A DNA stretch of 64,000 bases from an uncultured bacterium (GTDB lineage Bacteria > Verrucomicrobiota > Kiritimatiellia > PWTM01): contig CAACVY010000002.1 of NCBI GenBank assembly GCA_900661335.1, forward strand, positions 3,955-67,954, read 5' to 3'. Below the pieces are notes generated by a model. It was not told where the DNA came from and did no database searches. It saw only the letters and a program-made list of their open reading frames with translations. Shown here piece by piece: positions 1-52,976 of this stretch (position 1 is the stretch's first letter; each line of letters begins with the position of its first letter). A program made the position numbers and the translations under genes.

Positions 1-1
1 C

Positions 2-1051
2 ATGGAGGAACGCGGCATCGGTCGGCCGAGCACGTACGCGTCGACGGTCCAGCTGCTCTACGAACGGGGTTACATTCGGCGCGTCAAACGGGCGATCTAT
101 CCCACCGAGCTGGGCATGAAGGTAGTCGAGTACCTCGTCGAACGCTTCCCGAAGTTGTTCGACATCGGCTTCACGGCCGACATGGAACAGCAGCTCGATG
201 CCATCGAGGAAGGGCGGGCAAACTGGCGCGACATGCTTCAGCGGTTCTACCAGAGCTTCCAAGAATGGATGGAATCGGCGCAGGGCCGCGATCCCAACCC
301 GGACGAGCTCAAACAGCTGATCGAGTTGCTCGTTCAGGACGTGCAGTCGTGGGACGCGCCCGCGCCGGGGCGGCGTGCGTTCAACGAGCAAAAGTTTGTC
401 AAATCGCTCCGCGAGCAAATCGCGGCCGGGCGGCCCGTGACCGAGCGCCAAGGCCAGGTGCTCCGGCGGATCGCATGGAAATATCGCGACCAGGTCCCGG
501 AGGTAGTCCCGTTGCTTTTGCGGCTGGGATGGTCGGAACCTGCCGGGACTTCGCGGCCGCCTTCCGAACGTACGGCGGCTGATGTGCAGCAACTGCTCGA
601 TCGCTTGGCGGATGTGCAGTTCGATCCTCCGCGGAAGGTCCGCGGGCGAACGTGGGATGATAAGAAGTTTTACGAATCCCTCCGCGCACAAGTCGCAGCC
701 GGTCGGGCGCTGACGGACGCGCAGGTCAAAGCGTTGGAGCAACTCGCCCGTCGCTATGGACGGCTGCCCAGTTCCAGCGGGGGCAGCGTGGCCGAGGACC
801 CGATGACCCCGGAGGAGACCCAAGCGATCGAGGAGATGTTCCGCGTGGTCCGGGAAGTGCGGGAATGGAAAACACCTCCGGAGCGCCGCGGCCTCATAAA
901 AGACGATCGAGCGTTCGTCGAGTCGCTGGAACAGCAATTCCGACGTTCTGGTCGACTGAGTCCAAAGCAGGTCGCGGCGTTGCGACGTTTGGTCCAACGC
1001 TATAGTGGAACGGCGACGTCGTCGGAGCCGACGGAAACGAACGCATCGTGA
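2..1051 (+). CDS. topA: DNA topoisomerase I, C-terminal part (5' end outside window)
   Basis: ORF is open from the window edge and begins in the type IA topoisomerase motif GIGRPSTYAS. The last ~260 aa are three tandem copies of a ~75-95 aa unit rather than Zn-ribbons. Confidence 0.8.
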   Translation: MEERGIGRPSTYASTVQLLYERGYIRRVKRAIYPTELGMKVVEYLVERFPKLFDIGFTADMEQQLDAIEEGRANWRDMLQRFYQSFQEWMESAQGRDPNPDELKQLIELLVQDVQSWDAPAPGRRAFNEQKFVKSLREQIAAGRPVTERQGQVLRRIAWKYRDQVPEVVPLLLRLGWSEPAGTSRPPSERTAADVQQLLDRLADVQFDPPRKVRGRTWDDKKFYESLRAQVAAGRALTDAQVKALEQLARRYGRLPSSSGGSVAEDPMTPEETQAIEEMFRVVREVREWKTPPERRGLIKDDRAFVESLEQQFRRSGRLSPKQVAALRRLVQRYSGTATSSEPTETNAS

Positions 1052-1923
1052 TCGACCTTCACTTGCATTCGAACATCTCCGACGGCACCTTGTCCCCCGA
1101 GGACTTGGTTCGGGAGCTCGTTCGTTCGGGCATTCGCTATGCGGCCTTGACTGACCACGACACGATTGCGGGGTGGCGACGGTTCGAACAGGCGGCGAGA
1201 CAGGCGGGTTTGTCGGTCATTCGCGGCGTCGAAATCAGTGCAGCCCACCCGTGCTGTCCGGTGCATTTGTTGGGCTATTTCGTGGAGGCTACCCCTGCGA
1301 TGTGCTCGGCCCTGCGTCGAGTGCGCCGGGGACGCATGCGGCGCAATCAAGCCATCGTGGCGAAACTGGCAGAGCTTGGGAAACCTGTCGCGTGGGAAAG
1401 CGTGCGCCGCACGGCAGGCTCATGCATGATCGGGCGGATGCACATCGCGCGAGCGATGGTGGCGGCGGGCCATGTGCCGACAGTGCGAGCCGCCTTCGAT
1501 GAATGGCTCGCGCGCGGGCGTCCCGCCTACGTGGAGCGGTTCAGGCTGCCGTTTCATCGCGCGATCGCGCAGCTACATGCCGCCAGCGCGGTGGTCGTCC
1601 TTGCGCATCCGGGCCTGCTGCCGTGTGGGTCGGACGACCGAGCGCAGATCCTCCGCGATCTGGTCGGAGCCGGTTTGGACGGTGTGGAGGCGTATCACTC
1701 GCGCCACAATTCGGAGATCACCCGGGAGTTTCGGCGTTGGGCTCAACGGCATGGCGTGCTTGTGACGGGCGGATCCGACTACCATGGGCCACAGCCCAGC
1801 GATGGATCGCACGCAGTGGAACTGGGGCAGTTGCACGTTCCCGAAGAAACCTGGAAGGCGTTGTGCGACGCCGCCCAACGATGGTCTCGCCGCTCTGCGC
1901 GAGTTCATGCGACAAAGCTTTAG
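1048..1923 (+). CDS. PHP-domain phosphoesterase (TrpH/YciV-like)
   Basis: PHP motifs HLHSNISDG, LTDHDT, VLAHPG, GGSDYHG. GTG start overlaps the topA stop (GTGA). Confidence 0.8.
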   Translation: MIDLHLHSNISDGTLSPEDLVRELVRSGIRYAALTDHDTIAGWRRFEQAARQAGLSVIRGVEISAAHPCCPVHLLGYFVEATPAMCSALRRVRRGRMRRNQAIVAKLAELGKPVAWESVRRTAGSCMIGRMHIARAMVAAGHVPTVRAAFDEWLARGRPAYVERFRLPFHRAIAQLHAASAVVVLAHPGLLPCGSDDRAQILRDLVGAGLDGVEAYHSRHNSEITREFRRWAQRHGVLVTGGSDYHGPQPSDGSHAVELGQLHVPEETWKALCDAAQRWSRRSARVHATKL

Positions 1924-1932
1924 AGACTTCCG

Positions 1933-2009
1933 TCCAAGGATTGGAAGTCGCGGTCGGAAATTCGTCCAAAGGTTGGAAGCCCGGCGGCTAAATTCGTCCA
2001 AAGCTTGGA
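1933..2009. repeat. Three 32-bp-phased units with palindromic core TCCAA-N3-TTGGA (locus 1)
   Basis: Cores at 1933-1945 (TCCAAGGATTGGA), 1965-1977 (TCCAAAGGTTGGA) and 1997-2009 (TCCAAAGCTTGGA). Units 1-2 also share the flank AAATTCG. Intergenic, starting 10 nt after the PHP stop codon. Confidence 0.8.
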
Positions 2010-2252
2010 ACACTCGGGGGTGGGTTCTGGTTGGCGCCGGACTTGTCGTCGTGCACGCCCAAGTTCGCGGACACGCCGTGGCAGTTACCGGAGACTTCGC
2101 CGCCGACTCTGGCACGTGCGAGTGCGGCAGCGTCAGCCTTCGCAGGTCGCACGTATTTCGGTCTCGGCGTAGACTGAGCCGACGGACACGAGAACCCATC
2201 GGCGGAATTGGGTGCGCGGAGTTTCCCGCACTTGACGAATCAGGAGGTCGAA

Positions 2253-3674
2253 GTGAAGGAGCGCTGGTTTCGTGGTCGCACTGCGGCGGTGTGGCTGGCG
2301 GTGGGGAGTGCAATCGCAGCCATGGCAGAGGCCCCATCGAATCGGCTGCCGGCCGCCATCGCGTCGGCCGAGGAGTTGTTGGCGTGCATGGCGTCGCAGC
2401 GGCATGCCACGCGGCCAGACTTTGTGGTGTATGTGCCGCAGGTGACGAACTCCGCGCTTGCGGACACGGGCAACGAGCATTTCTTAGTGTTCGAGGGGCC
2501 GGACGGTTCGTTCATGGCGGTATGGACGCAGAGCTCCGCGGAAGCTCGGCCGGACCAGCACATCGTGTTTGCGCGGAGCGAGGATGGTGGACGGACGTGG
2601 TCGCCGCCGAAGGTGATCGCCGGTCCAGCCCGCGCGGGCGAGGGGCCGATGGCCAGCTGGGCGTTTCCGCTCGTTAGCCGGCGGGGCCGGATCTACGTGC
2701 TGTACAGCCAGCACATCGGTCGCTACGACAATTTTCCTCACCACACCGGCTGGCTGGTCGGGATGTACAGTGACGATGCTGGGCGTACATGGTCGGCCCC
2801 GCAGCGCGTATTCATGCCGCGCAGCATTCGGGATAATCCTGATCCGACAATGCCGCCCAATGTTCTGTGTTGGCAAAAACCGCTCCGGCTCGCGCCGGGG
2901 GGACGTTACCTCGTGGGCGTGACACGGTGGACGAGTTTTGCGGTGACGCCCAACCCCACGAAGTCATGGATTTCCGCGGATTCCCGCGTGGAGTTCATTC
3001 GTTTCGAGAATGTGGACGACCACCCAGAACCGAGCGAGCTGAGGCTGTCGTGGTTCATGACGAACGAACGAGCGCTGGCGGTCGAGTTTCCTGGCAACCC
3101 GACGATCAGCGTGTGCCAAGAGCCCTCCATCGTACGGTTGCCGGACGGTCGTTTGTTCTGCGTGATGCGCACCGCCGCGGGCGGCCCCTATTGGAGCGTG
3201 AGCGCCGATGGTGGCGAGACGTGGAGTTCGCCGCGCCCTTTGTGCCGACGCGACGGCGGTACCCGACTGCTACATCCGCTGTCGCCGTGCCCGATCTACG
3301 ACCTGGGTGGTAACGAAGCCGGCAGCGGCCGCTACGCATTGTTCATTCATGGCCATGATGGGCACTACCAAGGATATGGCCCGACCGACACGATGTTTCA
3401 CCGGCGGCCGGTCTACTTGGTGCCGGGGACGTTCATGCCCGGCGCGGACCAGCCGGTGTGGTTCGAGGAGCCCCGGTGGTTCATGGACCACGACGGGACA
3501 CCGCTCGGGCCCGTGGGAAGCCGTGGGCGTTTGGACTTGGCGCTTTATGGCAGTTGGACCGTTTTGGAGGGCGTGCCAGTGTTGTGGTATCCCGACCGCA
3601 AGTTTTTCCTTCTTGGGCGGCGAATCGGACCGGAGTGGTGGCCGAGGACAGCTCCGACGGCGGAAGTTCGCTGA
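2253..3674 (+). CDS. BNR/Asp-box repeat glycosidase, sialidase-like (GH33-like), secreted
   Basis: Three Asp-box motifs: SEDGGRTWS, SDDAGRTWS, SADGGETWS. GTG at 2253 is preceded by AGGAGG (2242-2247) and gives a signal-peptide-like N-terminus (KERWFRGRTAAVWLAVGSAIAAMA). The ORF-track TTG start at 2208 is less likely. Confidence 0.65.
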   Translation: MKERWFRGRTAAVWLAVGSAIAAMAEAPSNRLPAAIASAEELLACMASQRHATRPDFVVYVPQVTNSALADTGNEHFLVFEGPDGSFMAVWTQSSAEARPDQHIVFARSEDGGRTWSPPKVIAGPARAGEGPMASWAFPLVSRRGRIYVLYSQHIGRYDNFPHHTGWLVGMYSDDAGRTWSAPQRVFMPRSIRDNPDPTMPPNVLCWQKPLRLAPGGRYLVGVTRWTSFAVTPNPTKSWISADSRVEFIRFENVDDHPEPSELRLSWFMTNERALAVEFPGNPTISVCQEPSIVRLPDGRLFCVMRTAAGGPYWSVSADGGETWSSPRPLCRRDGGTRLLHPLSPCPIYDLGGNEAGSGRYALFIHGHDGHYQGYGPTDTMFHRRPVYLVPGTFMPGADQPVWFEEPRWFMDHDGTPLGPVGSRGRLDLALYGSWTVLEGVPVLWYPDRKFFLLGRRIGPEWWPRTAPTAEVR

Positions 3675-3809: not shown

Positions 3810-4463
3810 GTGGAACTTGAAAGGGCTGGGGAGTTGAACTGGATTCGATCCCATGGGTGGGCGGTCGTGGCGGGTAGTCTTTGGGCTGCATGGTTCGCCT
3901 GGACGCGGTCGGGTGGCGTGGATTTTTGGTGGGGGATGGCCACGATGTCGGCGGGTGTGGCCGGGATCGGTCTGGTGGTGGAGCCAACGTTGCGGCGGGA
4001 GTTGGCAGAGGAACTCCAGCGCGAGGGGGTTCGCGGCGTGGTCGAAGGTGTTGCGCTTGCGCTGAGTCTTTATGCCGTATTCTGGATTGGCAACCACTTG
4101 GTTCGCCATGTCGGGTTCGGGGAACGTGTGGATTCGGTGTATGGCCTGGCGCACGGGGTGTCGCGGGTTCGGATCGCGGCGCTGTTGCTGTGGGTGATCG
4201 GGCCGGCCGAGGAGATTGTTTGGCGTGGCTTGGTTCAGCGGCAGTGGGCTCGGCATGAACCGCGGGCGAGCGTGGGATGGGCCACGGCATTGTATGCCGC
4301 GGTTCACGCCCCGAGCGGGAACTGGGTACTTGTCATGGCTGCGGCGGTGGCGGGCGTGGTGTGGGGTGGGTGGTATTACGCCCGGCGGCGGCTCTGGGCC
4401 AACATCGTGAGCCATGCGCTGTGGGATGTGCTTGTGTTTGTCGCGTGGCCCTTGGGAGCGTGA
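3810..4463 (+). CDS. CPBP-family intramembrane metalloprotease (CAAX protease-like)
   Basis: Multi-pass hydrophobic protein with CPBP motifs EEIVWRG (EExxxR) and SHALWD (HxxxD/N). GTG start. Confidence 0.75.
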   Translation: MELERAGELNWIRSHGWAVVAGSLWAAWFAWTRSGGVDFWWGMATMSAGVAGIGLVVEPTLRRELAEELQREGVRGVVEGVALALSLYAVFWIGNHLVRHVGFGERVDSVYGLAHGVSRVRIAALLLWVIGPAEEIVWRGLVQRQWARHEPRASVGWATALYAAVHAPSGNWVLVMAAAVAGVVWGGWYYARRRLWANIVSHALWDVLVFVAWPLGA

Positions 4464-4479
4464 TCAGGCTCGCTGGACT

Positions 4480-5169
4480 TCACGGGCGGCGAAACGAGTT
4501 CAGCCAGGGCAGGGCATCGGCCAGGTTGGCGGCGACCATATGGGCGCCGGCTTGCCGCAGCGTGGGTTCGTCGAAAGTGCTGGTCAGCCCTAAGCAGTAG
4601 GCGCCGGCGGCGCGTCCTGCTTGGAGTCCGTTGGGCGCGTCTTCGACCACCAGACAGCGCTCGATCGGCGTTCCTACAGCGAGGGCCGCGATAAGGAAGA
4701 TGTCCGGGTGAGGCTTTTTACGCGGCACATCGCTGCCAGTGACCCGTGCATCGAAGAGTGCAGGCGGCAGACCGATCTCGGCGAGATTGCCCTCCAGTTT
4801 GATGCGGTCGGCACTGGTCGCGACGGCGAGTCGCCATCCGAGTTCTCGCGCAGTTTGGACGAATTCGCGCGCGCCGGGAAGCGCCTGCAGCCGTCCGCGG
4901 ATCACCTGCAGGTAGATCTCATAGGTCAACTGCTTGTCCTCAGGCAACCGCAGTGGGAGCCCGCGCCGTTCCGCCACGCCGCCGAGGTAGCGGTCCTCGC
5001 CCGCACCCACAAAGGGCCGGAACTCTTCTGGCGACACTTCCACACCGAAGCGGCGACGGAACATCTCCCGTGCGGCTTCGCAAATGAATGGTTCGGAGTC
5101 GCAGAGCACGCCGTCCATGTCGAACAGGATCGCCTCGATCGGATGTAGCCATGGTTCCAGCACCCGCAT
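4480..5169 (-). CDS. HAD-superfamily hydrolase, subfamily IA (beta-phosphoglucomutase-like)
   Basis: Motif I FDMDGVLCDSE, plus later ATSA and VVEDAPNG motifs typical of HAD-IA. Confidence 0.75.
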   Translation of the reverse strand: MRVLEPWLHPIEAILFDMDGVLCDSEPFICEAAREMFRRRFGVEVSPEEFRPFVGAGEDRYLGGVAERRGLPLRLPEDKQLTYEIYLQVIRGRLQALPGAREFVQTARELGWRLAVATSADRIKLEGNLAEIGLPPALFDARVTGSDVPRKKPHPDIFLIAALAVGTPIERCLVVEDAPNGLQAGRAAGAYCLGLTSTFDEPTLRQAGAHMVAANLADALPWLNSFRRP

Positions 5170-5262
5170 GAATCTTCCCTCGGCGCTGATGCTATGTGTG
5201 CCTCGGCCGCGAGTCGCTCTTGATTCGCCCGCGGACGCTGGCGACGGATCCTGGCGTGGCCG

Positions 5263-6585
5263 TCACGAGTAGCGGTGTCCGTGCACGTTGGAAGTACGGT
5301 AGCCGTACAGCGCAATTACCGCGAAACAGATGAGCGGGAGCGCAAAGGACACCCGGGTGCTGGACAGCACGAGCGAGCCGTAGCGGAAGGCCGGCTGATC
5401 CATGATCCAACCTTGAATGGGGGGCATGAGGGCCCCACCGCCGATGGCCATGATCAAGCCCGCGGCGCCCAACTTTGCGTCGTCGCCTAGCCCTTTGAGG
5501 GCGATGCCGTAGATCGTCGGGAACATCAGCGACATACACGCCGAGACCGCGATCAGACAGTACAGCCCCCAAATGGTTGGGATGAAGATTGTCCCAAGGA
5601 TGAGCAGGAAGCCGCCGGTGGCGAGCGTGAAGAGCAACCCGCCGGGGCTGACATACTTGAGCAGGTACGTGCAGATGAAGCGGAACGTGACGAACGTCCC
5701 CATCGCGTACATGTTGTAGAGCTGGCCAATTTCCTTCTTGATGCCCAACTCGTACTCGGCGTACTGGATGATGAACGTCCAGCACATGATTTGGACGCCG
5801 ACGTAGAAGAACTGCGCGATGACGCCTTCGATGTAGCGGCCGTTGCGGACCAAGCGGCGGACCGTACCTAGAAAATCGATGTTGCGGTTGCCTTCGCCCG
5901 CCACGCGTGGCAGGCGTGCGATCAGAAAGATGATGAGCACCACGAACACGGTGAGTCCGAGCGCGGCGTAGGGTGCAACGATCACGTCCAAGTCATGGTG
6001 CGCCAGTTTCAAGAACTCTTCAGGGTTGGTTTGCTGGAGGATCCGGCGCTCCGCTTCCGGCATTGGATCGAGTCGGCGCAGGATGAACGTCTTTGCGACC
6101 CACATGCCGGTGAGCGAGCCGATGGGGTTGAAGGCCTGGGCGAAGTTCAGCCGACGCGTGGCAGTCTCTTCGGGTCCCAGCGCGAGAATGTACGGGTTGG
6201 CGCTGGTTTCCAAGAACGAGAGCCCGCAAGTCATCACAAAGTACGCCAGTAGAAACGCCCAGAACGCCATCATCCAGCCGGACGGGATGAACAAGAAACA
6301 GCCGAGGGAGTACAGCAGCAGACCCATGAGAAGACCGCTCTTGTAGGAGAACCGCTTGATGAATAGCGCGGCGGGGATGGCCATCACGCAGTAGCCGCCG
6401 TAGAAGGCGAACTGCACGAGCGAGCTTTGAAAGTTGCTGATCAAAAGAATGTTCTTGAACGCCGCCACCATCGGGTTAGTAACGTCGTTCGCGAACCCCC
6501 ACAGCGCGAAGAGGGTCGTGACCAACGCAAAGGGGAACAGAAATTCGCGCGTCAACACCGGTGGGTGTTTGTGAGCACCTTCCAT
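5263..6585 (-). CDS. fucP: L-fucose:H+ symporter family MFS permease
   Basis: Collinear resemblance to E. coli FucP (FPFALVTTLFALWGFANDVTNPMV..., LETSANPY, MFPTIYGIALKGLG). ATG at 6585 is preceded by AGGAGA; the ORF-track start 6660 is probably too far upstream. Confidence 0.8.
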   Translation of the reverse strand: MEGAHKHPPVLTREFLFPFALVTTLFALWGFANDVTNPMVAAFKNILLISNFQSSLVQFAFYGGYCVMAIPAALFIKRFSYKSGLLMGLLLYSLGCFLFIPSGWMMAFWAFLLAYFVMTCGLSFLETSANPYILALGPEETATRRLNFAQAFNPIGSLTGMWVAKTFILRRLDPMPEAERRILQQTNPEEFLKLAHHDLDVIVAPYAALGLTVFVVLIIFLIARLPRVAGEGNRNIDFLGTVRRLVRNGRYIEGVIAQFFYVGVQIMCWTFIIQYAEYELGIKKEIGQLYNMYAMGTFVTFRFICTYLLKYVSPGGLLFTLATGGFLLILGTIFIPTIWGLYCLIAVSACMSLMFPTIYGIALKGLGDDAKLGAAGLIMAIGGGALMPPIQGWIMDQPAFRYGSLVLSSTRVSFALPLICFAVIALYGYRTSNVHGHRYS

Positions 6586-6762: not shown

Positions 6763-8241
6763 TTATGGGTCGCGCGTGCCCGGGGGACCGATCCGCGTGA
6801 ACGGGATGCGCAGAAGGCGCGCCAGTTTCTCCAATGTGTCGGCTCGATGCCCCACTCCGACCGCGCAATGGTGCGCAGGACCTGCCTCCGTCCAGGATTG
6901 GATGAATTCGCGCGCACTGATACCGAACCGATAGCGGCTATTCGTGTTGCCGATTTGCAAGGTTGGACCGGGAACGGAGTCACCTTCGGCGACCAAGAGG
7001 CCCACGCCGCCATCGGCTCGTTCGACGACCGACAGCACGGTGATGGGTCCGTGGCGCACCGCCATTTGAATCGAAAGACCGCGGCCGGGTTTGCCGTGGT
7101 AGACCGGTAGCGGCACCAACCCCACGCGTCCTTCAGCGATCGCCGGGTGCGCCGGTCCGTCGTGGCCAAGCAGCACGACGTCGTCGACGAAATCGGCCAG
7201 GTAGAATTCGGAAAAGGACCCACCGGCCTCCAGGAGGTCGAAGATTTTCATCGCGTGGGCGTTTTTGATTTCGCATTCCCCGGCCACCGGTACGTGGCGG
7301 CCCGTCAACAGGGTGAAGCCTGGGATCACGGAGGTGATGATGTCCTGGTAGGGGTGGCCGGCCACGCCTTCATAGTAGTAGGCCAACGCGTGCAAGTCGT
7401 GCCGTTCTACCAGGCGGTCCAATGCCACCGATGTCCGTGCAGCTCGGTCCAGTTCCGCAGGTGGACATTCAGGAGAGACGTCGAACGTTTTGCGGAATTC
7501 GCGAAGTTTCGCTTGAACGTCTCGGCGCGTAGCTTGCTCGCGAAGTTGATGAAGCTCGCACATCTCGAGCAGTTCGAAATGCGTTCCGAACACGCCCGCC
7601 AGGCGAGTCATGTCGGTATAAACGTCCAGCATGCCGCAATAGTAATGGCCCAGAACGCCCATGCGGGTGCGTCGGAGACGCGCTCGCACGCATGCCGCCT
7701 CTACCCATTCGCGGATTTGCTTCCAGGCCGCCGCGTCCCTTAGATGGCCGGTGACCATGTGGAACTGGATGCCGGCGCGACTGAACGCACAGGCCAATTC
7801 GGGGCACGCGCAGGCTTGGCAATGCTCCAGCCAAACTCCGGTCATGCGGCCCCGATCGCCCAGGGCGTTGAACTTCGCGTAATCCAGCTGCGGCACCGGC
7901 TGGAGGTTCAGCACGACCACCGGGACGTTCAGGCGCTGGACGAGAGGCAGCACGGTGGACGACAGCGCGTAGGTGCTGACGTACAGGAACAGCAGTTCCA
8001 CTCCTTCGCATCGGAGACGGTCGGCGACTTGGTGGGCGTGGGGGACTGTGTCCACCAAGCCACCGTTCACTACGCGCAGGTCGCCATAGCGGGCAAGGGT
8101 CTGCGCGATCTGTTGCTGGTACCCGACCAGACGGTCTCGGAGTCCTTCGAATTGCTCCCAGTAAGTTTGGAGTCCGACCCCCACCAACCCGACCGGAGTT
8201 CGCTCCGCAATCTTCGTTTGAGCTTGGACGCTTTTTTTCAT
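6763..8241 (-). CDS. L-arabinose isomerase (AraA) family sugar isomerase
   Basis: About 490 aa with AraA-like blocks ([35 protein letters not shown]). ATG at 8241 (MKKS) is preceded by GGAGG. Lies next to fucP. Confidence 0.7.
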
Positions 8242-34006: not shown

Positions 34007-34141
34007 TCAAATTGCCAACCGTTTGCGTCCCTCGCGTCGCCGTCGGGCCAAGACCTTTCGTCCGCCGCGAGTCGCCATCCGTTTCAAAAAGCCATGCTTT
34101 CGTTGGCGTTTCTTTCGATGAGGTTGATAAGTTCTCTTCAT
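34007..34141 (-). CDS. rpmH: 50S ribosomal protein L34 (absent from the ORF track, below its length cutoff)
   Basis: Hand translation of the minus strand gives [49 protein letters not shown] lies upstream of the ATG. Confidence 0.9.
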
Positions 34142-34508: not shown

Positions 34509-34553
34509 TCCAATCCTTGGACGATCCAGGCCGACACTGTTCCAAGCGTTGGA
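34509..34553. repeat. Two 32-bp-phased TCCAA-N3-TTGGA units (locus 2)
   Basis: GTCCAATCCTTGGAC (core 34509-34521) and TTCCAAGCGTTGGAC (core 34541-34553). Intergenic. Confidence 0.75.
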
Positions 34554-34609: not shown

Positions 34610-35608
34610 TCAGAGTCGCGGAGCCGGTGAAAGCTCGGCATTGCCGTTATTTGAAGGAGACGCTTGAGTTGGCCAAGGTTTGCGGTCACAGGCCCGTTGA
34701 CCCCAGGGCCGAGGAGTGAACAAATCTTCTGGGCGCAAACCCAGTTCTTGAATGGCCTCCAGGGCGTAGTTCAGGTCGCCGATTTCGGCCCCCGGGTTGT
34801 TGGTGCCGAAGGAAAACTTGAGCCCCGCCGCCTTGGCCGCACGAAGCATGGGCCATCGTGGGAGGCGCGTGCGGGCGTTGATTTCCATAGCCACTCCGTG
34901 GCGAGCCATCGCGTCGACAACTCGTTGAATGCGCGAAGGAGTCCAAAGTTGGTCGTAGTGGTCCATCAGCGCGGCGGGTAGGTAGGATGGGTTGGCCAGG
35001 ATGTCAATGGGCTCTTTTTCGATAATCTCGACGGTTCGCTCGACAAGGGTGTCCATGAATTCCTCGGGATCTTCCACGTGCACTTCGGCGGGGATCCATA
35101 GCCGCATGCACCGACCACGGCGGTCCGTCCAGGTCATCGCGTCGGTGAAAATGTAGTCGAAGCGAGCGGCGGTCTCGGGCCGGATGAGACGGACCCACTC
35201 GCGGCCCTCGGCCTGAATTGCGCAGTAGACCGGGTAGGGACGGACCATCTGGAGCCACTCGAGAACGGCGTGATCGTTGGTTGTTGGAAAGCCCAAGCCG
35301 ACGTTGATGGCGATCCCGTAGCGGACGCCGGTTCGTTCGGACTCCGCCACGGCCTGCTCGACGGTCAATCCGCCTTTGAGGTGCACGTGCAAGTTCATGA
35401 TGGGATAGCCCGCACGGACGAACTCCCGCACGCGGGACCAACCCTCGCTCCTCGGCTCGGGTACGTTAGTTTGATGGCCCATGGTTTGGGTTTGGGCCAG
35501 CGAGAAGATTGGAGCGGTTATGATCAGCGCAGTCACCAGCCACCGCACAAACTCGGTTGGAACGCGGCGGAGGGTTTGGTCTTCGAACTTAGATCTGTTC
35601 CGGCTCAT
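34610..35608 (-). CDS. Membrane-anchored/secreted PHP- or amidohydrolase-like TIM-barrel hydrolase with partly degenerate metal ligands
   Basis: NLHVHLKGG, FTDAMTW, ILANPSY, AMEINAR, FSFGTNNPG follow PHP motif order, but several His are replaced. N-terminal hydrophobic anchor follows ATG 35608. Confidence 0.45.
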   Translation of the reverse strand: MSRNRSKFEDQTLRRVPTEFVRWLVTALIITAPIFSLAQTQTMGHQTNVPEPRSEGWSRVREFVRAGYPIMNLHVHLKGGLTVEQAVAESERTGVRYGIAINVGLGFPTTNDHAVLEWLQMVRPYPVYCAIQAEGREWVRLIRPETAARFDYIFTDAMTWTDRRGRCMRLWIPAEVHVEDPEEFMDTLVERTVEIIEKEPIDILANPSYLPAALMDHYDQLWTPSRIQRVVDAMARHGVAMEINARTRLPRWPMLRAAKAAGLKFSFGTNNPGAEIGDLNYALEAIQELGLRPEDLFTPRPWGQRACDRKPWPTQASPSNNGNAELSPAPRL

Positions 35609-35831
35609 GTGGCCATGATCCCCAACTGCCTGCGTCGGCGCAAACTCGTCTGGCCATGGGGTGGCAACGTGGTAGCTGTGCGAGCGCTGGGAGCAGTTTC
35701 GTGTTTCGGCGCGGTGACGCCGGCGGTCGAGTCGCGTCCAGTGGTTTGCCGGGCTGGTCATGTGCGGCCGCTCAATCCTCCGTCGCTCCCGGCACTCGAA
35801 GGTTCTGGGCGATTTTGCTAGATGTGCAAGT

Positions 35832-48250: not shown

Positions 48251-49246
48251 TCAACCCCGTTCAGGTTTGGGTTCCCGTTGAAGAAGCCGTGCGACGGCTT
48301 CGGCGGGCGAAATCCGGCCGTGGACGACATCCCGAACCGCCTCGGCGATCGGCATCTGGACCCCGTGGTGTTCCGCGAGCCGCGCCGCGTGGTCGCAGTT
48401 GGTGACGCCCTCCACAACGTACTCCACGTTCTTCAAAATCTCGGCCGGGCATTCGCCGCGCCCGATTCGCTCGCCGAAGTTTCGGTTTCGGCTGCGGTGA
48501 CCATAGCAGGTGAGCATCAAATCGCCCACGCCGCTCAGCCCGGACAGTGTGGCAGGGTGCGCACCCGCGGCCACCGCCAAACGAGTCATTTCCGCTAAAC
48601 CTCGTGTGACCAGCGCCGCCTTGGCATTGGCGCCCAGACCGAGGCCGTCGCAAACACCGGCGGCAATCGCGATCACGTTTTTGAGCGCGCCGCCCAACTC
48701 CACCCCGATCACGTCGTCGCTGGTGTACACGCGGAAGCTCGGACGCACGAACCACTGTTGCACCGCCCGGGCTTGGCCATGATCGCGACAGGCCGCGACG
48801 ACTGCGGTGGGCCAGTCCTGCGCCACCTCAACCGCAAAACTGGGCCCCGACAATGCCACTACGGGGCCCACGCCCCAGATCCGTTCGATGGTCTCCGTCA
48901 TCCGCCACAGATGCGTGGGGTGGAGCCCTTTCGTCACACTGACATACAGCGCATGCCGCGAGACCCGACCCACGAACCGGCGGAGGACGCTGTCCATATG
49001 CCCCGACGGAACCGCGACGACGACCAGTTCCACGTTCTGCATGGCCAGGTCCTCGCGGTCGGTCCATTCTAGTTCCGGAGGAAGCGGAATCCCGGGCAAG
49101 AACCGGCGATTTTCGCCCGCGGCGATAGCCTCGTGCACATGTTCGGGAAACGGGCTCCAAATGCGCACGCGTCGCCCGTTGCGAAGAAGCACCAACGCCA
49201 GGGCCGTGCCCCATGCGCCGTCGCCGATGATCGTAGCGCAACTCAT
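48251..49246 (-). CDS. gpsA: NAD(P)H-dependent glycerol-3-phosphate dehydrogenase
   Basis: IIGDGAWGTALALVL Rossmann motif and GALKNVIAIAAG. ATG overlaps the plsY stop (ATGA). Confidence 0.9.
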   Translation of the reverse strand: MSCATIIGDGAWGTALALVLLRNGRRVRIWSPFPEHVHEAIAAGENRRFLPGIPLPPELEWTDREDLAMQNVELVVVAVPSGHMDSVLRRFVGRVSRHALYVSVTKGLHPTHLWRMTETIERIWGVGPVVALSGPSFAVEVAQDWPTAVVAACRDHGQARAVQQWFVRPSFRVYTSDDVIGVELGGALKNVIAIAAGVCDGLGLGANAKAALVTRGLAEMTRLAVAAGAHPATLSGLSGVGDLMLTCYGHRSRNRNFGERIGRGECPAEILKNVEYVVEGVTNCDHAARLAEHHGVQMPIAEAVRDVVHGRISPAEAVARLLQREPKPERG

Positions 49247-49932
49247 GGATGTTCAGTCGTTTGGCCTGTTGGGGGCGCGCCTTGGTTGGCCGCCGCCAAG
49301 GAAGGGTTGCTCCGCCCAATTTTAGGTTCCGTACCAGCGAACAGCCGTTGCAGATTGGTTCGGTGGCGCACTACCACCAATAGTCCCAACGCGGTCAATG
49401 CCCACGGCCGCCACAGGTCGTGGACGCCATACAAGGCCCACGCCGCCAGGGGCACCGTGATGGCCGCGCAAATCGAGGCCACGGAGATATAGCGGGTGAG
49501 GCCCAGCGCGACCAGCCAGGTTCCCGCGCCCACCGCCGCTGCCCACGGCGCGAGGCCCACGACCACACCCGCGCCGGTGGCGACGCCTTTGCCGCCTCGA
49601 AATTTTAACCACACCGGCCATGTGTGCCCCACAACCGCGCCGACTCCGGCGACCAGGCTCAGGGGGCATCCGCCTGGCAGCGGCGAGCTCCATGCACGAT
49701 CTGCCAACGCGACCGCGCCCCAGCCTTTGCCGGCGTCGAGCACGAACACGAACCAGCCCCACGCCCGCCCGAGAGTCCGACCGACGTTGGTCGCGCCGAT
49801 GTTCCCACTGCCAACGCGTTGAATATCCACCCTGTGGGCCTTGGCCACCAGCCACCCGAAAGGGATCGAGCCCAAGAGGTAGCCTAAGGCCGCTGCCATG
49901 ACCGTATCGGGCCAGAACATGTTGTGGATCAT
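49243..49932 (-). CDS. plsY: Glycerol-3-phosphate acyltransferase PlsY
   Basis: LGYLLGSIPFGWLVAK...GSGNIGATNVGR...FRGGKGVAT. Start is ATG 49932 or 49920. Confidence 0.85.
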   Translation of the reverse strand: MIHNMFWPDTVMAAALGYLLGSIPFGWLVAKAHRVDIQRVGSGNIGATNVGRTLGRAWGWFVFVLDAGKGWGAVALADRAWSSPLPGGCPLSLVAGVGAVVGHTWPVWLKFRGGKGVATGAGVVVGLAPWAAAVGAGTWLVALGLTRYISVASICAAITVPLAAWALYGVHDLWRPWALTALGLLVVVRHRTNLQRLFAGTEPKIGRSNPSLAAANQGAPPTGQTTEHP

Positions 49933-50115: not shown

Positions 50116-50336
50116 TCCAAGCGTTGGAACAAACTCGACCTAGAGTTTCCAAGGTTTGGGCGAATCAAGCCATGGATGGTCCAATCCTGGAACGGTGGGC
50201 CAGTGATCCGTTCAAGACAGCTGAGGTCGTTTGTCAAGGGGTTGGGGGCAGTTATGCACAGGTCGCCTCCGTGGGCAGCTTGAGTTGTTGGGCCAGGGGT
50301 TGGACGCGCAGGGCACATCTTGGTCCAAACCTTGGC
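50116..50336. repeat. Extended array of 32-bp-phased TCCAA-N3-TTGGA-type units (locus 3)
   Basis: Cores at 50116 (TCCAAGCGTTGGA), 50148 (TCCAAGGTTTGGG) and 50180 (TCCAATCCTGGAA), with a degenerate one at 50244 (TCAAGGGGTTGGG). A second phase set lies at 50292 (GCCAGGGGTTGGA) and 50324 (TCCAAACCTTGGC). Intergenic between the alpha-galactosidase stop and the plsY start. Confidence 0.7.
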
Positions 50337-50367: not shown

Positions 50368-52455
50368 TTACGGCGCGGGCGGCGTGGATAGTTGCTTGGC
50401 CATCTCGGCTTCCCACGTGGTGGGTGGCCGCGCCGGAGTCGCCCGCGCCGTGGCGTCCTCGGGCCACAGGCGGAAAAGTTCACACCCGTGGCGCGGAAGT
50501 TCAACTTCCAACATTTGCTCGAACTTTCCAAGATCGCGTTGGCGCCACAGATCGCGGACTCGCCATTGTCCGCCAATGCGGAGGTCTCCCCATTCGACCC
50601 GCGCCACTTGGCGTTCCTCATCGAGGTTGAACACACCCACGGCGAGCGAGCCATCGGCGAGTTGGCGGGCCCAAATTTGAACCGGCCCGCGCACCGCGAC
50701 CCGAGAGGCAGCGCGCCCCAGTGGATCTTGGTTGATTTCGAGCACTTCGCCGTTCGTAATCAGGTTGCGGGTGAAGTCGTCCATGGTGGTGAGGTCGCAC
50801 CCGAGAAACAGCGGAGCGGCGAGCAGGCACCATAGCGTCACGTGCGTGTACTGTTCGTTGGGCGTTAGACGGGTCGGGCGCTGCACCGCACCCCATCCAA
50901 CCCGGCCGATGACCAGCATGTCCGGGTCGTTCCAGCCACCGGGGCCCGCAAACAGTTCGAGGCCCGCTTGGCCGAACCCAATGCGGCGAACCGACTCCCA
51001 TGTGTCCTCGATATCGCCCGTGGTGCGCCAGAGGTGGCCGCCGGCGGTCCGTCCCCACGCGGCCACGTTGCCTTGGCCGTACTGGCAGATGCTATAGACG
51101 ATGTCGCGTGGTTGGCGCCGGAGCAGTTCCGCCATGCATAGGTACGGCTTCATCAGTTCTTGCAGTGTGGATCCCCGGGCGACGCGGGCGTAGGTGCACC
51201 AGTCGTATTTGAGGAAATCGAAGCCCCACTCCGCGAACTGGGCGGCATCGAGGGCTTCGTGGCCGTAACTGCCCACCGCACCGGCGCAGGTCTGTGGGCC
51301 GGGCGATGAATAGATGCCAGCGCGTAGCCCGAGATCGTGGATTCTGCGGACCATTCCGGCAAGGTCGGGAAACCGCGCGTTGGGTTGAATCCGCCCTCGC
51401 GTATCGCGACCTGGGCCGCGCACGGATGGGTCGTCCGAATCGGGAGCTTGCTGCCACATGTCGTCCACGACGACGTACGACCACCCGTAGCGAGCGAGTC
51501 CCTGGGTGACCATGGCGGCGGCTTGGGCTTCGACGAGGTCTTGCCGCACCGCGGGGCCGTAGCAATTCCAGCTATTCCATCCCATGGGCGGCGTGAGGGC
51601 GAGTGCGTCCCCGATCACGAGCATTAGGGTACCCGTGGCCGCGCCATGGCGGTTGGCGGCACTGAGCTGCACCATGTACTGGCCGTTTGTTGGCGTGCGT
51701 CCTTCAATGCGCAGCCGGGCGGCATCGAAATGGAGACCTGGGGGTAGGGACGCGACCGACACGGTCAGCGGTTCTTCACCGGTGATGGGCAGAGTGAACA
51801 GGAAGGGCCGGTGAGCTCGGGCGCCGATGACCCGTGGTGCCTGAAAACGAGGCGCGGGATTGGGGGGTGGTGTGCGTAGTTGCGGCGGTTCCTCAGGAAT
51901 GGGGGAAAGTGGCCGCACGGCTTCGTTGGCGACTATGAGCGTGGGCTCTGCCCAGTTCGCCACGTCGTCCGTAGTACCGTCGCCCGCGTCGGTGACCCGC
52001 AGGGCGATTCGACGATGGCCGGTGAGATCCAGTTCGACCCGAACAGGCAAGTCGCCACCGCGCAGGCACGGGCTCGTCCAGACCAGTCGGTCTCCATCGC
52101 CAAGAATTCGGAAGATGACGCTGCCGCGACCCGGCCGGACTAGGTCGTCCACTCCGACCCAAGCCGTGAACCGGACCGGCCCGTCGGGCAGCTCCAGACG
52201 CCACAAACTTTCCGCGTGAACGCCTATTCCGCGAGAGAAGGTACGTCCGCCCATTTGGATCGGTTGACCTCGGACGTTTCGGTTGACCGCGGGTTTTCCC
52301 CAACCGACGACCAGTTGGGAGAGGTCCAGCGTTTCCAGCGGGATTTCCACGGGGCGCCCGTCCGTGGCGATGCAGATAAGCCCCCACACAAACGGACCCA
52401 CAAGCCGGCGGCAACGATGAGCTTGACTCAGCATGCCAAGGTTCATGATCACCAT
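50368..52455 (-). CDS. Secreted alpha-galactosidase (GH27) with N-terminal NPCBM domain
   Basis: NPCBM-like block (GWGKPAVNRNVRGQPIQMGGRTFSRGIGVHAES). GH27 motifs PPMGWNSWNCYG, VVDDMWQ, LKYDWC. Start is ATG 52455 or 52446, around the folK stop. Confidence 0.8.
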   Translation of the reverse strand: MVIMNLGMLSQAHRCRRLVGPFVWGLICIATDGRPVEIPLETLDLSQLVVGWGKPAVNRNVRGQPIQMGGRTFSRGIGVHAESLWRLELPDGPVRFTAWVGVDDLVRPGRGSVIFRILGDGDRLVWTSPCLRGGDLPVRVELDLTGHRRIALRVTDAGDGTTDDVANWAEPTLIVANEAVRPLSPIPEEPPQLRTPPPNPAPRFQAPRVIGARAHRPFLFTLPITGEEPLTVSVASLPPGLHFDAARLRIEGRTPTNGQYMVQLSAANRHGAATGTLMLVIGDALALTPPMGWNSWNCYGPAVRQDLVEAQAAAMVTQGLARYGWSYVVVDDMWQQAPDSDDPSVRGPGRDTRGRIQPNARFPDLAGMVRRIHDLGLRAGIYSSPGPQTCAGAVGSYGHEALDAAQFAEWGFDFLKYDWCTYARVARGSTLQELMKPYLCMAELLRRQPRDIVYSICQYGQGNVAAWGRTAGGHLWRTTGDIEDTWESVRRIGFGQAGLELFAGPGGWNDPDMLVIGRVGWGAVQRPTRLTPNEQYTHVTLWCLLAAPLFLGCDLTTMDDFTRNLITNGEVLEINQDPLGRAASRVAVRGPVQIWARQLADGSLAVGVFNLDEERQVARVEWGDLRIGGQWRVRDLWRQRDLGKFEQMLEVELPRHGCELFRLWPEDATARATPARPPTTWEAEMAKQLSTPPAP

Positions 52456-52976
52456 TCGTTTTTCCAACGGCGAACTTCGCCGGAGCTCGCGTCGAGCAAA
52501 GCGAGAATTTCCGCGACTGTTTGGGATTGTCCAGGCAGGCGGAGGTTGGGGCGGACGTCGGCGAGGGGCTGGACCACGAAGCGGCGGGTGGCCCATCGGG
52601 GGTGGGGGACCGTGGCGACGTCGTTGTCCAAAACTTCGTCGCCACAATACAGCAGGTCCACGTCCACCGTGCGCGGCGCATTTCGGTCTTCAGTTCGGAT
52701 TCTGCCGAGGGACGTTTCGATTTCATGCAGCCGCTCCAGCCACCACGGTGCGGTCCATGGCGCCGCGACGATCAGCACAGCGTTGAGGTATTTCAGGTGC
52801 TGGTATTCCGGCCGAACGCCGACCGGTTCGGTTTCGTAGAGGGGCGAACAGGCCACGAGCCGCACCTCGGGGAGTGCAACAATCTTGGCGCGGGCCGCGC
52901 GAAGATGGGCTTCGCGGTCCCCCAGGTTGGACCCGAGACTGAGTCCGACTTCACGTTCATGGGCGAGAGCATTCAT
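52449..52976 (-). CDS. folK: 2-amino-4-hydroxy-6-hydroxymethyldihydropteridine diphosphokinase
   Basis: LGSNLGDREAHLRAA...SPLYETEPVG...RTVDVDLL...VPHPR. Confidence 0.85.
   Translation of the reverse strand: MNALAHEREVGLSLGSNLGDREAHLRAARAKIVALPEVRLVACSPLYETEPVGVRPEYQHLKYLNAVLIVAAPWTAPWWLERLHEIETSLGRIRTEDRNAPRTVDVDLLYCGDEVLDNDVATVPHPRWATRRFVVQPLADVRPNLRLPGQSQTVAEILALLDASSGEVRRWKNEW

Follow-up and report, generated by a model that had tools for sequence, protein, structure and literature searches.

The 64,000-nt stretch of DNA analyzed here (hereafter the window; positions 3,955 to 67,954 of contig CAACVY010000002.1, assembly GCA_900661335.1, from an uncultured bacterium of the Kiritimatiellia) carries, at three loci between genes, phased arrays of a short palindrome, TCCAA-N3-TTGGA (TCCAANNNTTGGA, referred to as the core), whose copies follow one another every 32 nt (Table 1). 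The repeat is real, abundant, and clade-wide, with genome-specific variants. A preliminary description of this DNA had reported six perfect copies, all intergenic and in phased sets, at a frequency far above chance (its estimate for chance was ~0.06 per 64 kb), and our pattern count and gene calls agree: the six perfect cores all lie outside the genes called in this analysis, while dinucleotide-preserving shuffles (n = 100) gave an expectation of 0.04 and a largest count of 1, with 0/100 reaching six. When up to two mismatches were allowed (at least 8/10, 48 sites), the inter-site distances of 100 nt or less were exclusively 32 (six times), 64 (twice), and 100 nt (once), and nine phased pairs were observed vs. 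0.7 in Markov shuffles.

Tandem Repeats Finder called a period-32 array at 1931-2010. The sequence there reads as described before, with three cores 32 nt apart at 1928-2011, the first of them 10 nt past the TAG stop codon of the PHP gene, and with AAATTCG present in the 3' flanks of both unit 1 and unit 2. The four imperfect units recognized earlier (one or two mismatches each) also exist and stand in phase with their neighbors, array 3b as a whole being out of phase with array 3a (112 nt from the unit at 50180). All ten window units have G or C as the center base; their loop triplets are mixed, their period is 32, and their flanks carry G. The G+C content of the window is 62.5%.

Table 1. 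Arrays, cores, and neighboring genes at the three loci (positions in the window).
Feature	Position	Strand	Description
PHP-domain phosphoesterase gene	1048..1923	+	stop 10 nt before array 1
Array 1	1931..2010	.	3 units, period 32, each core with CG before it
Array 1, perfect core	1933-1945	.	TCCAAGGATTGGA
Array 1, perfect core	1965-1977	.	TCCAAAGGTTGGA
Array 1, perfect core	1997-2009	.	TCCAAAGCTTGGA
BNR/sialidase-like secreted protein gene	2253..3674	+	start ~245 nt past array 1
rpmH (ribosomal protein L34)	34007..34141	-	followed by rnpA and yidC; array 2 ~370 nt upstream
Sigma-70-like site of rpmH	34215-34187	-	TTGACG-17-TAAACT; ~50 nt upstream of rpmH
Array 2	34509..34553	.	2 perfect cores, 32 nt apart, each with CG after it
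Array 2, perfect core	34509-34521	.	TCCAATCCTTGGA
Array 2, perfect core	34541-34553	.	TCCAAGCGTTGGA
Gene for 383-aa protein, no Pfam match	34610..35761	-	stop 57 nt from array 2
plsY (glycerol-3-phosphate acyltransferase)	49243..49932	-	start ~183 nt beyond array 3a; followed by gpsA
Array 3a	50116..50192	.	3 units, period 32
Array 3a, perfect core	50116-50128	.	10/10
Array 3a, core	50148-50160	.	9/10 (1 mismatch)
Array 3a, core	50180-50192	.	8/10 (2 mismatches)
Array 3b	50292..50336	.	2 degenerate units 32 nt apart
Array 3b, core	50292-50304	.	8/10 (2 mismatches)
Array 3b, core	50324-50336	.	9/10 (1 mismatch)
Alpha-galactosidase gene (NPCBM + Melibiase_2)	50368..52647	-	stop 31 nt from array 3b

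Across 379 perfect cores, the consensus is tTTCCAA-N-S-N-TTGGAAa. T precedes the core in 92% of them and A follows it in 93%, which extends the real core to TTCCAA-N3-TTGGAA, and these flanks often continue as runs of T and A. The loop is 3 nt long in every case; its center base is S (G or C) in 98%, and the two bases beside the center (N1 and N3) are complementary in 49%. In the lineage of the window the flanks are often G or C, giving CGTCCAA...TTGGACG. The extended palindrome measures 15-25 bp, with a core of 15-19 bp and spacers of 12-17 nt.

Among Kiritimatiellota-type loci (units matching at least 11/12), successive units are spaced by 31 nt (90 cases), 32 nt (86), 30 or 33 nt (8), 21-22 nt (14), 41-43 nt (12), or other distances (5). 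These classes are about one helical turn apart (~2, 3, and 4 turns), a reading that is weaker for 41-43 nt, since this class comes mainly from two genomes with an extra G+C-rich hairpin in the spacer. Two-unit arrays are commonest (101 cases), followed by single units (50), three units (26), and four to seven units (17). Loop and period vary by genome: the loop is TCA/TGA in 74/77 cores of assembly CAIVKH (period 32) and in 13/18 cores of RZZM (period 31 in 14/14), and GCC/GGC in 19/27 cores of CAISWQ (period 31 or 32). In CAIVKH the spacer reads AATTT, nine G+C-rich nt, and AAATT, so that ~25 of every 32 bp are patterned. When neighboring units are oriented by their center base, 113 pairs point the same way and 69 opposite ways.

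A wide pattern scan had been proposed in the preliminary description, and it matched many genomes, with distances peaking at 31-32 nt. Our scan covered 185,579 species, each represented by one genome, and looked for two cores, with any gap, at a period of 17-47 nt. It returned at least 120 matching rows, and ~113 of the 120 listed come from ~49 species-level assemblies named Kiritimatiellae/-ales/-ia, Tichowtungia, Pontiella, "Lentisphaerae", Victivallales, or Verrucomicrobia/-ota (the NCBI taxonomy places both Tichowtungia and Pontiella in Kiritimatiellota), the other seven listed being unrelated repeats or coding matches from other phyla. The closest homologs of the PHP protein of the window (51-55% identity) are likewise named Kiritimatiellae or Lentisphaerae, and 79 metagenome loci encoding more distant PHP relatives (415 kb), which served as a negative control, hold no core. 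The sequence sampled holds about one array in 10-20 kb, and dense genomes have one every few kb, as illustrated by 77 cores in 127 kb of CAIVKH and three loci in the 64 kb of the window. In full-text literature searches, neither this motif nor any repeat family of Kiritimatiellota turned up. The repeat is thus apparently undescribed; the kind of element is known, and this family is an unusual variant of that kind.

Some of the loci lie on IMG/VR contigs, which are classed as viral. Contigs L126/L131, L130/L134, and L138 carry typical 31-nt arrays, whereas core pairs are 28 nt apart in the related contigs L125, L127, and L128. Contig L136 has six copies of gagtTCCAAACTTTGGAactccgt at a spacing of 36-60 nt, with an iteron-like look.

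An array that lies behind a stop codon may act in the transcript, with hairpins or unit-unit pairing in the 3' or 5' untranslated regions stabilizing, terminating, or directing the processing of RNA. The median distance of 29 nt between upstream stop codon and array would suit such a role, the folding of strongly conserved arrays far exceeds that of shuffles (z = -5 to -6), and part of the action of REPs is ascribed to their RNA (PMC3733652). The window arrays, however, fold no better than shuffles in 4/5 tests, and the degenerate in-phase units (n = 38, a small sample) show 52 one-sided arm changes and two compensatory doubles, i.e., no excess of the compensatory changes expected of a covarying hairpin. 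Both results agree with the earlier remark that the arms are weak for RNA hairpins. Read on the strand of the upstream gene, the center base shows no bias, with 85 C and 83 G. Searches against Rfam gave no match at the gathering score in the window, and, in four array-rich loci searched at an E-value threshold, solely sub-threshold chance matches on the arrays. At the three window loci there is no sigma-70 promoter-like or terminator-like site within the arrays, the sole terminator-like site reported lying outside array 2 and being at chance level; the stem itself has two G:C among its 5-8 pairs, with an A-rich 3' flank and no U-tract, in contrast to the G+C-rich stem and U-tract of an intrinsic terminator. 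Arrays are also common in divergent spacers, spacing classes stepped by ~10 bp have no rationale in RNA, and the palindromy often runs on into the 3-nt loop, where pairing is impossible. Taken together, we consider an RNA-level element quite improbable. The helical-turn spacing and the palindromy into unpairable loop positions argue instead for symmetric recognition of duplex DNA, and the geometry first proposed, in which dimers would bind on one face of the helix, survives in a dyad-symmetric core spaced at ~2, 3, and 4 turns.

With genes called by a home-made gene finder, 61 arrays lie in co-directional, 20 in divergent, and 12 in convergent spacers, corresponding to a normalized occupancy of 16, 24, and 9% respectively. 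In co-directional spacers the median distance of an array is 29 nt to the stop before it and 77 nt to the start that follows, and 36 arrays are nearer the stop vs. 17 nearer the start (p = 0.013); the three window loci are likewise biased toward stops. Published REP families also sit near the upstream stop, with divergent spacers depleted (PMC3733652).

The genes flanking the three loci are unrelated to one another (Table 1), arrays 3a and 3b lying between the alpha-galactosidase stop and plsY-gpsA, and the remaining window genes are ordinary housekeeping, sulfatase, and sugar metabolism genes. We also looked for a conserved neighbor gene or regulon and rejected it, as both the largest arrays and the window loci adjoin unrelated housekeeping or carbohydrate-active-enzyme genes. 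The preliminary description had offered two readings of the arrays, an operator or insulator array for cooperative binding by a dimeric DNA-binding protein and a REP/BIME-like palindrome family. A gene-specific operator is unlikely because the flanking genes are unrelated and array 2 is ~300 nt upstream of the sigma-70-like site of rpmH; the REP/BIME-like reading is favored and is taken up below. The rpmH site suggests that the organism would use conventional promoters.

Adjacent cores could themselves be promoters for an ECF-type sigma factor, read in both directions as GGAA-N16/17-(CG)TCCAA. The gap from GGAA to TCCAA is indeed 16-17 nt at a period of 31 or 32, as in the ECF-sigma consensus, and window units carry CGTC. 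This is the least probable of the explanations considered, to which we give hardly any credence: arrays fill convergent spacers between two stops, the 21-22 and 41-43 nt classes do not fit, array 2 is ~370 nt from a gene, rpmH, with its own sigma-70-like site, and arrays are nearer stops than starts.

Two further features of the window were observed. Between 36927 and 39494 (~2.5 kb) the home-made gene finder calls three small open reading frames alone, one with a weak DUF4032 match and two without a Pfam match. The window matches part of assembly GCA_900661315.1 at full identity; in that assembly, contig CAACVZ010000039 (L121) joins window positions 1-2744 to 10795-8614 in reverse, an apparent 8-kb inversion. 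The junctions (2744/2745 and 10795/10796) have CTCACC microhomology alone, without inverted repeats, and the BNR (sialidase-like) gene, intact in the window, is cut off at the join. We therefore rejected an inversion and regard this as probably a chimeric join in that assembly.

Although mostly intergenic, the repeat also occurs inside genes, occasionally in frame in surface loops or linkers of the proteins. Only one of the six frames of the core contains a stop, and open frames often run through arrays, so the ~24 arrays designated genic by the home-made gene finder include many read-through artifacts; at least six are truly intragenic. Compared with solved homologs, the extra residues amount to 22 aa in MurF (L011), where they are bounded by two cores, about 47 aa in MurD (L011), about 45 aa in a KamA-like enzyme (L044), and about 38 aa in the linker of NadE (L076). 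Such inserts are often mixed with G+C-rich hairpin modules. In L011, a Verrucomicrobiota metagenome-assembled genome, both murF (1179-2585) and murD (4071-5324) carry in-frame arrays whose spacers share the 22-nt module CCGGCTGAGCCGGGGCTTGCTG, and these two arrays were the sole case found of a spacer module common to several loci of one genome. Intragenic REP and RPE copies have been reported in Opitutus terrae and Rickettsia (PMC3733652).

The KamA-like radical-SAM insert (L044:1064-2221, minus strand, aa 110-158) also contains a second G+C-rich inverted repeat, GGTGTAGGGCGTGCTTCC...GGAAGTACGCCCTACACC, which starts with a GTAG-like tag; its sequence suggests that the insert may be a mosaic of two repeat families. 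The ATG present in cores with a TGA loop (TCCA-ATG-ATTGGA) was considered as a start codon and rejected, since a control frame gave equally many long open frames (31 vs. 30).

Not all coding copies are insertions. A DHODH-like gene (L070) and RsmE (L064) have core pairs in conserved domains with no change of length vs. homologs. The pair in L070 (5802-5845, perfect, 31 nt apart) lies in the minus-strand gene 5140-6150 without insertion relative to PDB 1ep1_A, encodes PIIG and SKGW, and takes the sole GGA glycine codon of the gene; the G+C content at third codon positions (GC3) is 0.44 at the pair vs. 0.76 gene-wide.

Coding copies made by codon choice, together with clade-wide "dialects", inverted pairs, and the lack of strand bias, resemble DNA uptake sequences (DUS/USS), and the repeat might be such a signal or a sequence piled up by biased recombination (molecular drive). 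Neither phased arrays of up to seven units nor strong intergenic restriction is a feature of uptake sequences, however, and we consider this explanation very improbable.

A metagenome contig (L143), found via its PHP protein and hence with no selection for its cores, encodes a PHP protein with 93% aa identity to that of the window (~90% nt identity). At the same spot it has an array of five units (periods 32, 32, 31, and 32) vs. three in the window, a difference of two whole units (63 nt), and its 50 arm positions show no deviation. Spacer 1 of the window looks like a fusion of spacers 1 and 3 of L143, as from unequal recombination. Between orthologous units of the two, arms differ at 0/30 positions, loops at 2/9, and flanks and spacers at 17/59 (29%; Fisher p = 4e-4). 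In more distant species, arrays are present in the orthologous spacer in 3/5 comparisons, with unrelated spacer sequences and in one case a different period, and there are none in 2/5. Relatives at 50-55% aa identity have no array behind their PHP gene; the same loci do contain cores in other places. Conservation in orthologous spacers, suggested earlier as a check, is thus seen in L143 and in three of the five comparisons, and not in the other two or in the distant PHP relatives.

Other sequences were seen in some of these spacers. In L142 (5000-5260; PHP protein 49% identical), the spacer past the PHP gene has no TTCCAA core and instead two copies, ~130 nt apart, of the 24-bp perfect palindrome GGATATGCGACGCGTCGCATATCC, a different palindromic repeat. 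L015 has a run of TTTCAAG/TTTCAAA heptamers (7690-7730) where the orthologous L036 carries an array (2171-2214). In relatives from the lineage of the window, GTCCAA...TTGGAC cores occur as a pair 32 nt apart in L139 (5788-5832) and singly in L141 (5852-5864); in both, the cores lie in the same short spacer, between a ThuA gene and the next gene, where the called start of a signal-peptide protein adjoins or overlaps the core.

We propose that this repeat is a self-propagating palindrome family similar to REP, BIME, and RPE elements, whose arms would be read on DNA by a conserved symmetric protein; we put the chances of this at about even. The REP-like identity follows from the high copy number, the genome variants, the predominance of pairs, the position near stops, the mosaics with hairpin modules, the intragenic copies, and the change in unit number, while the departures from REP families and the constancy of the arms at the PHP locus point to a conserved symmetric protein reading the core on DNA. 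In the mechanism envisaged, duplication or unequal recombination would add whole units to arrays or remove them. The invariant arms with their G:C center would be the recognition site of a symmetric (dimeric) protein, and the 31-32 bp period (with minor classes of 21-22 and 41-43) would reflect a same-face geometry set by this protein. The protein may propagate or homogenize the repeat, and it may also be a host protein using it. A gain for the host, such as insulation, supercoil handling, or the organization of chromatin, would be conceivable.

The repeat falls under the broad definition of a REP, a short (20-40 bp) palindrome in high copy number and mostly intergenic. Similar to the REP/BIME/REPIN elements of Enterobacteria and Pseudomonas (PMC3733652, PMC2817692), it is short, abundant, intergenic, and near the 3' end of the upstream gene, with pairs as the commonest form, genome-specific variants, some in-frame intragenic copies, and, as in BIMEs, regularly spaced units. 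Unlike the alternating units of BIMEs, neighboring units here more often have the same orientation (113 vs. 69). REPs of the GTAG and CGTC superfamilies have an unpaired terminal tag, and those of the CGTC type an 8-9 bp stem, a 4-5 nt loop, and a CCA tail (PMC3733652), whereas here the 5' flank is T in 92% and the loop always 3 nt; CGTC is present in the window lineage but overlaps the stem (CGTCCAA), unlike in tagged REPs. The family further differs from REPs in its 3-nt loop with a G:C center, its phylum-wide identical arms, divergent spacers that are not depleted, and a period kept strictly to 31-32 bp between spacers that are mostly unrelated in sequence. Among the annotated window genes there is no candidate for a RAYT, the dedicated single-copy Y1 transposase gene that is flanked by the repeat in REP/REPIN systems.

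Two other families share part of these features. Neisseria dRS3/NIME clusters (CGTC-1, PMC3733652) also consist of short inverted repeats that bracket variable segments in mosaic arrays, which resembles the interleaving with G+C-rich hairpin modules in some genomes here; their sequence differs, and the units here are much shorter and have a fixed period. Rickettsia RPEs are likewise palindromes tolerated in frame in essential genes, adding 20-47 residues, and in-frame, stop-free insertions were found here in the conserved genes for MurF, MurD, NadE, and the KamA-like enzyme. RPEs are, however, single elements of 100-150 bp in one genus, whereas the units here are 15-19 bp cores in phased arrays.

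Several observations weigh against a REP-like replicator. Arms identical across a phylum are unusual, as REP families normally differ between genera, and most genomes (379 cores) lack the unpaired GTAG or CGTC tag. The higher occupancy of divergent than of convergent spacers (with home-made gene calls) is the reverse of typical REPs. The constancy of the arms at the PHP locus fits selection at the level of the host at least as well as a selfish element, and simple insertion does not account for the DHODH-like and RsmE pairs, which suggest in-place selection or conversion. Neither a transposase or recombinase nor a binding protein was found or linked to the repeat; the annotated window genes include no obvious partner protein and no RAYT-like, Y1 transposase, or Lrp-like gene.

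Many of the same observations would fit non-mobile sites that serve the host, on which an abundant protein of the nucleoid-associated or insulator type would land, its dimers binding cooperatively on one DNA face and wrapping or stiffening intergenic DNA, similar to site clusters of Lrp/AsnC (FFRP) regulators or to sopC of the F plasmid. Lrp-type regulators bind clusters of a 13-bp palindrome spaced by two or three turns on one face and wrap the DNA (PMC2995911), and the 13-15 bp palindrome here matches them in its 5+3+5 layout and its 21-22 and 31-32 spacings, with a further class near four turns. Conservation of arms and center throughout the phylum, arms that stay invariant at an orthologous locus while spacers diverge by 29%, occupied orthologous spacers in 3/5 cross-species comparisons, coding pairs without insertion in locally atypical codons (GC3 0.44 vs. 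0.76), divergent spacers that are not depleted, and the absence of strand bias all speak for such a role. Against it, loop and period are homogeneous within each genome, which points to a master sequence being copied and not to sites kept up independently, and in-frame insertions of 22-47 aa in murF, murD, nadE, and a kamA-like gene would be senseless as regulatory sites. The center is G or C in 98% of cores, unlike the AT-rich center of Lrp sites, which are moreover degenerate and gene-specific, whereas the arms here are near-invariant and the loci very frequent (as in CAIVKH). Arrays are absent from 2/5 orthologous spacers, more distant relatives have none behind their PHP gene, and no candidate protein was found among the annotated window genes. 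We regard host-serving sites as somewhat unlikely, yet as a serious rival.

The regular spacing could also be made by a ruler-type machine, in which a conserved symmetric protein would recognize TTCCAA-NSN-TTGGAA and add or align cores at 2, 3, or 4 turns, the arrays then becoming genome-wide landing pads for a chromatin-organizing protein. We judge this unlikely. In one variant, integration targeted to the core would duplicate it, a formal parallel to the way CRISPR adaptation duplicates a repeat or casposons leave long target duplications. The arrays themselves resemble CRISPR in being regularly interspaced short palindromic repeats with non-repeated spacers of fixed length. CRISPR arrays, however, have repeats of 24-48 bp with unique spacers of similar length, occur at few loci, and are accompanied by cas genes, whereas a 15-19 bp repeat and a 12-17 nt spacer are far too short, arrays of 2-7 units are frequent, the composition of the spacers is constrained, and no cas domains or genes were found in the window.

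Kiritimatiellota are abundant degraders of sulfated polysaccharides, and to our knowledge almost nothing is known of their genome organization. In practice, the repeat can break short-read assemblies, it lets open frames run through intergenic DNA, since five of the six core frames are open, and it is usable as a strain-typing marker. For the proposed REP-like family, a palindrome that is letter-perfect throughout a phylum, laid out in helical turns, variable in copy number, and tolerated in essential genes implies a conserved protein partner. The identity of this partner would tell whether Kiritimatiellota harbor long-lived, phylum-scale REP-like replicators or a sequence-coded system of phased chromatin or insulator sites.

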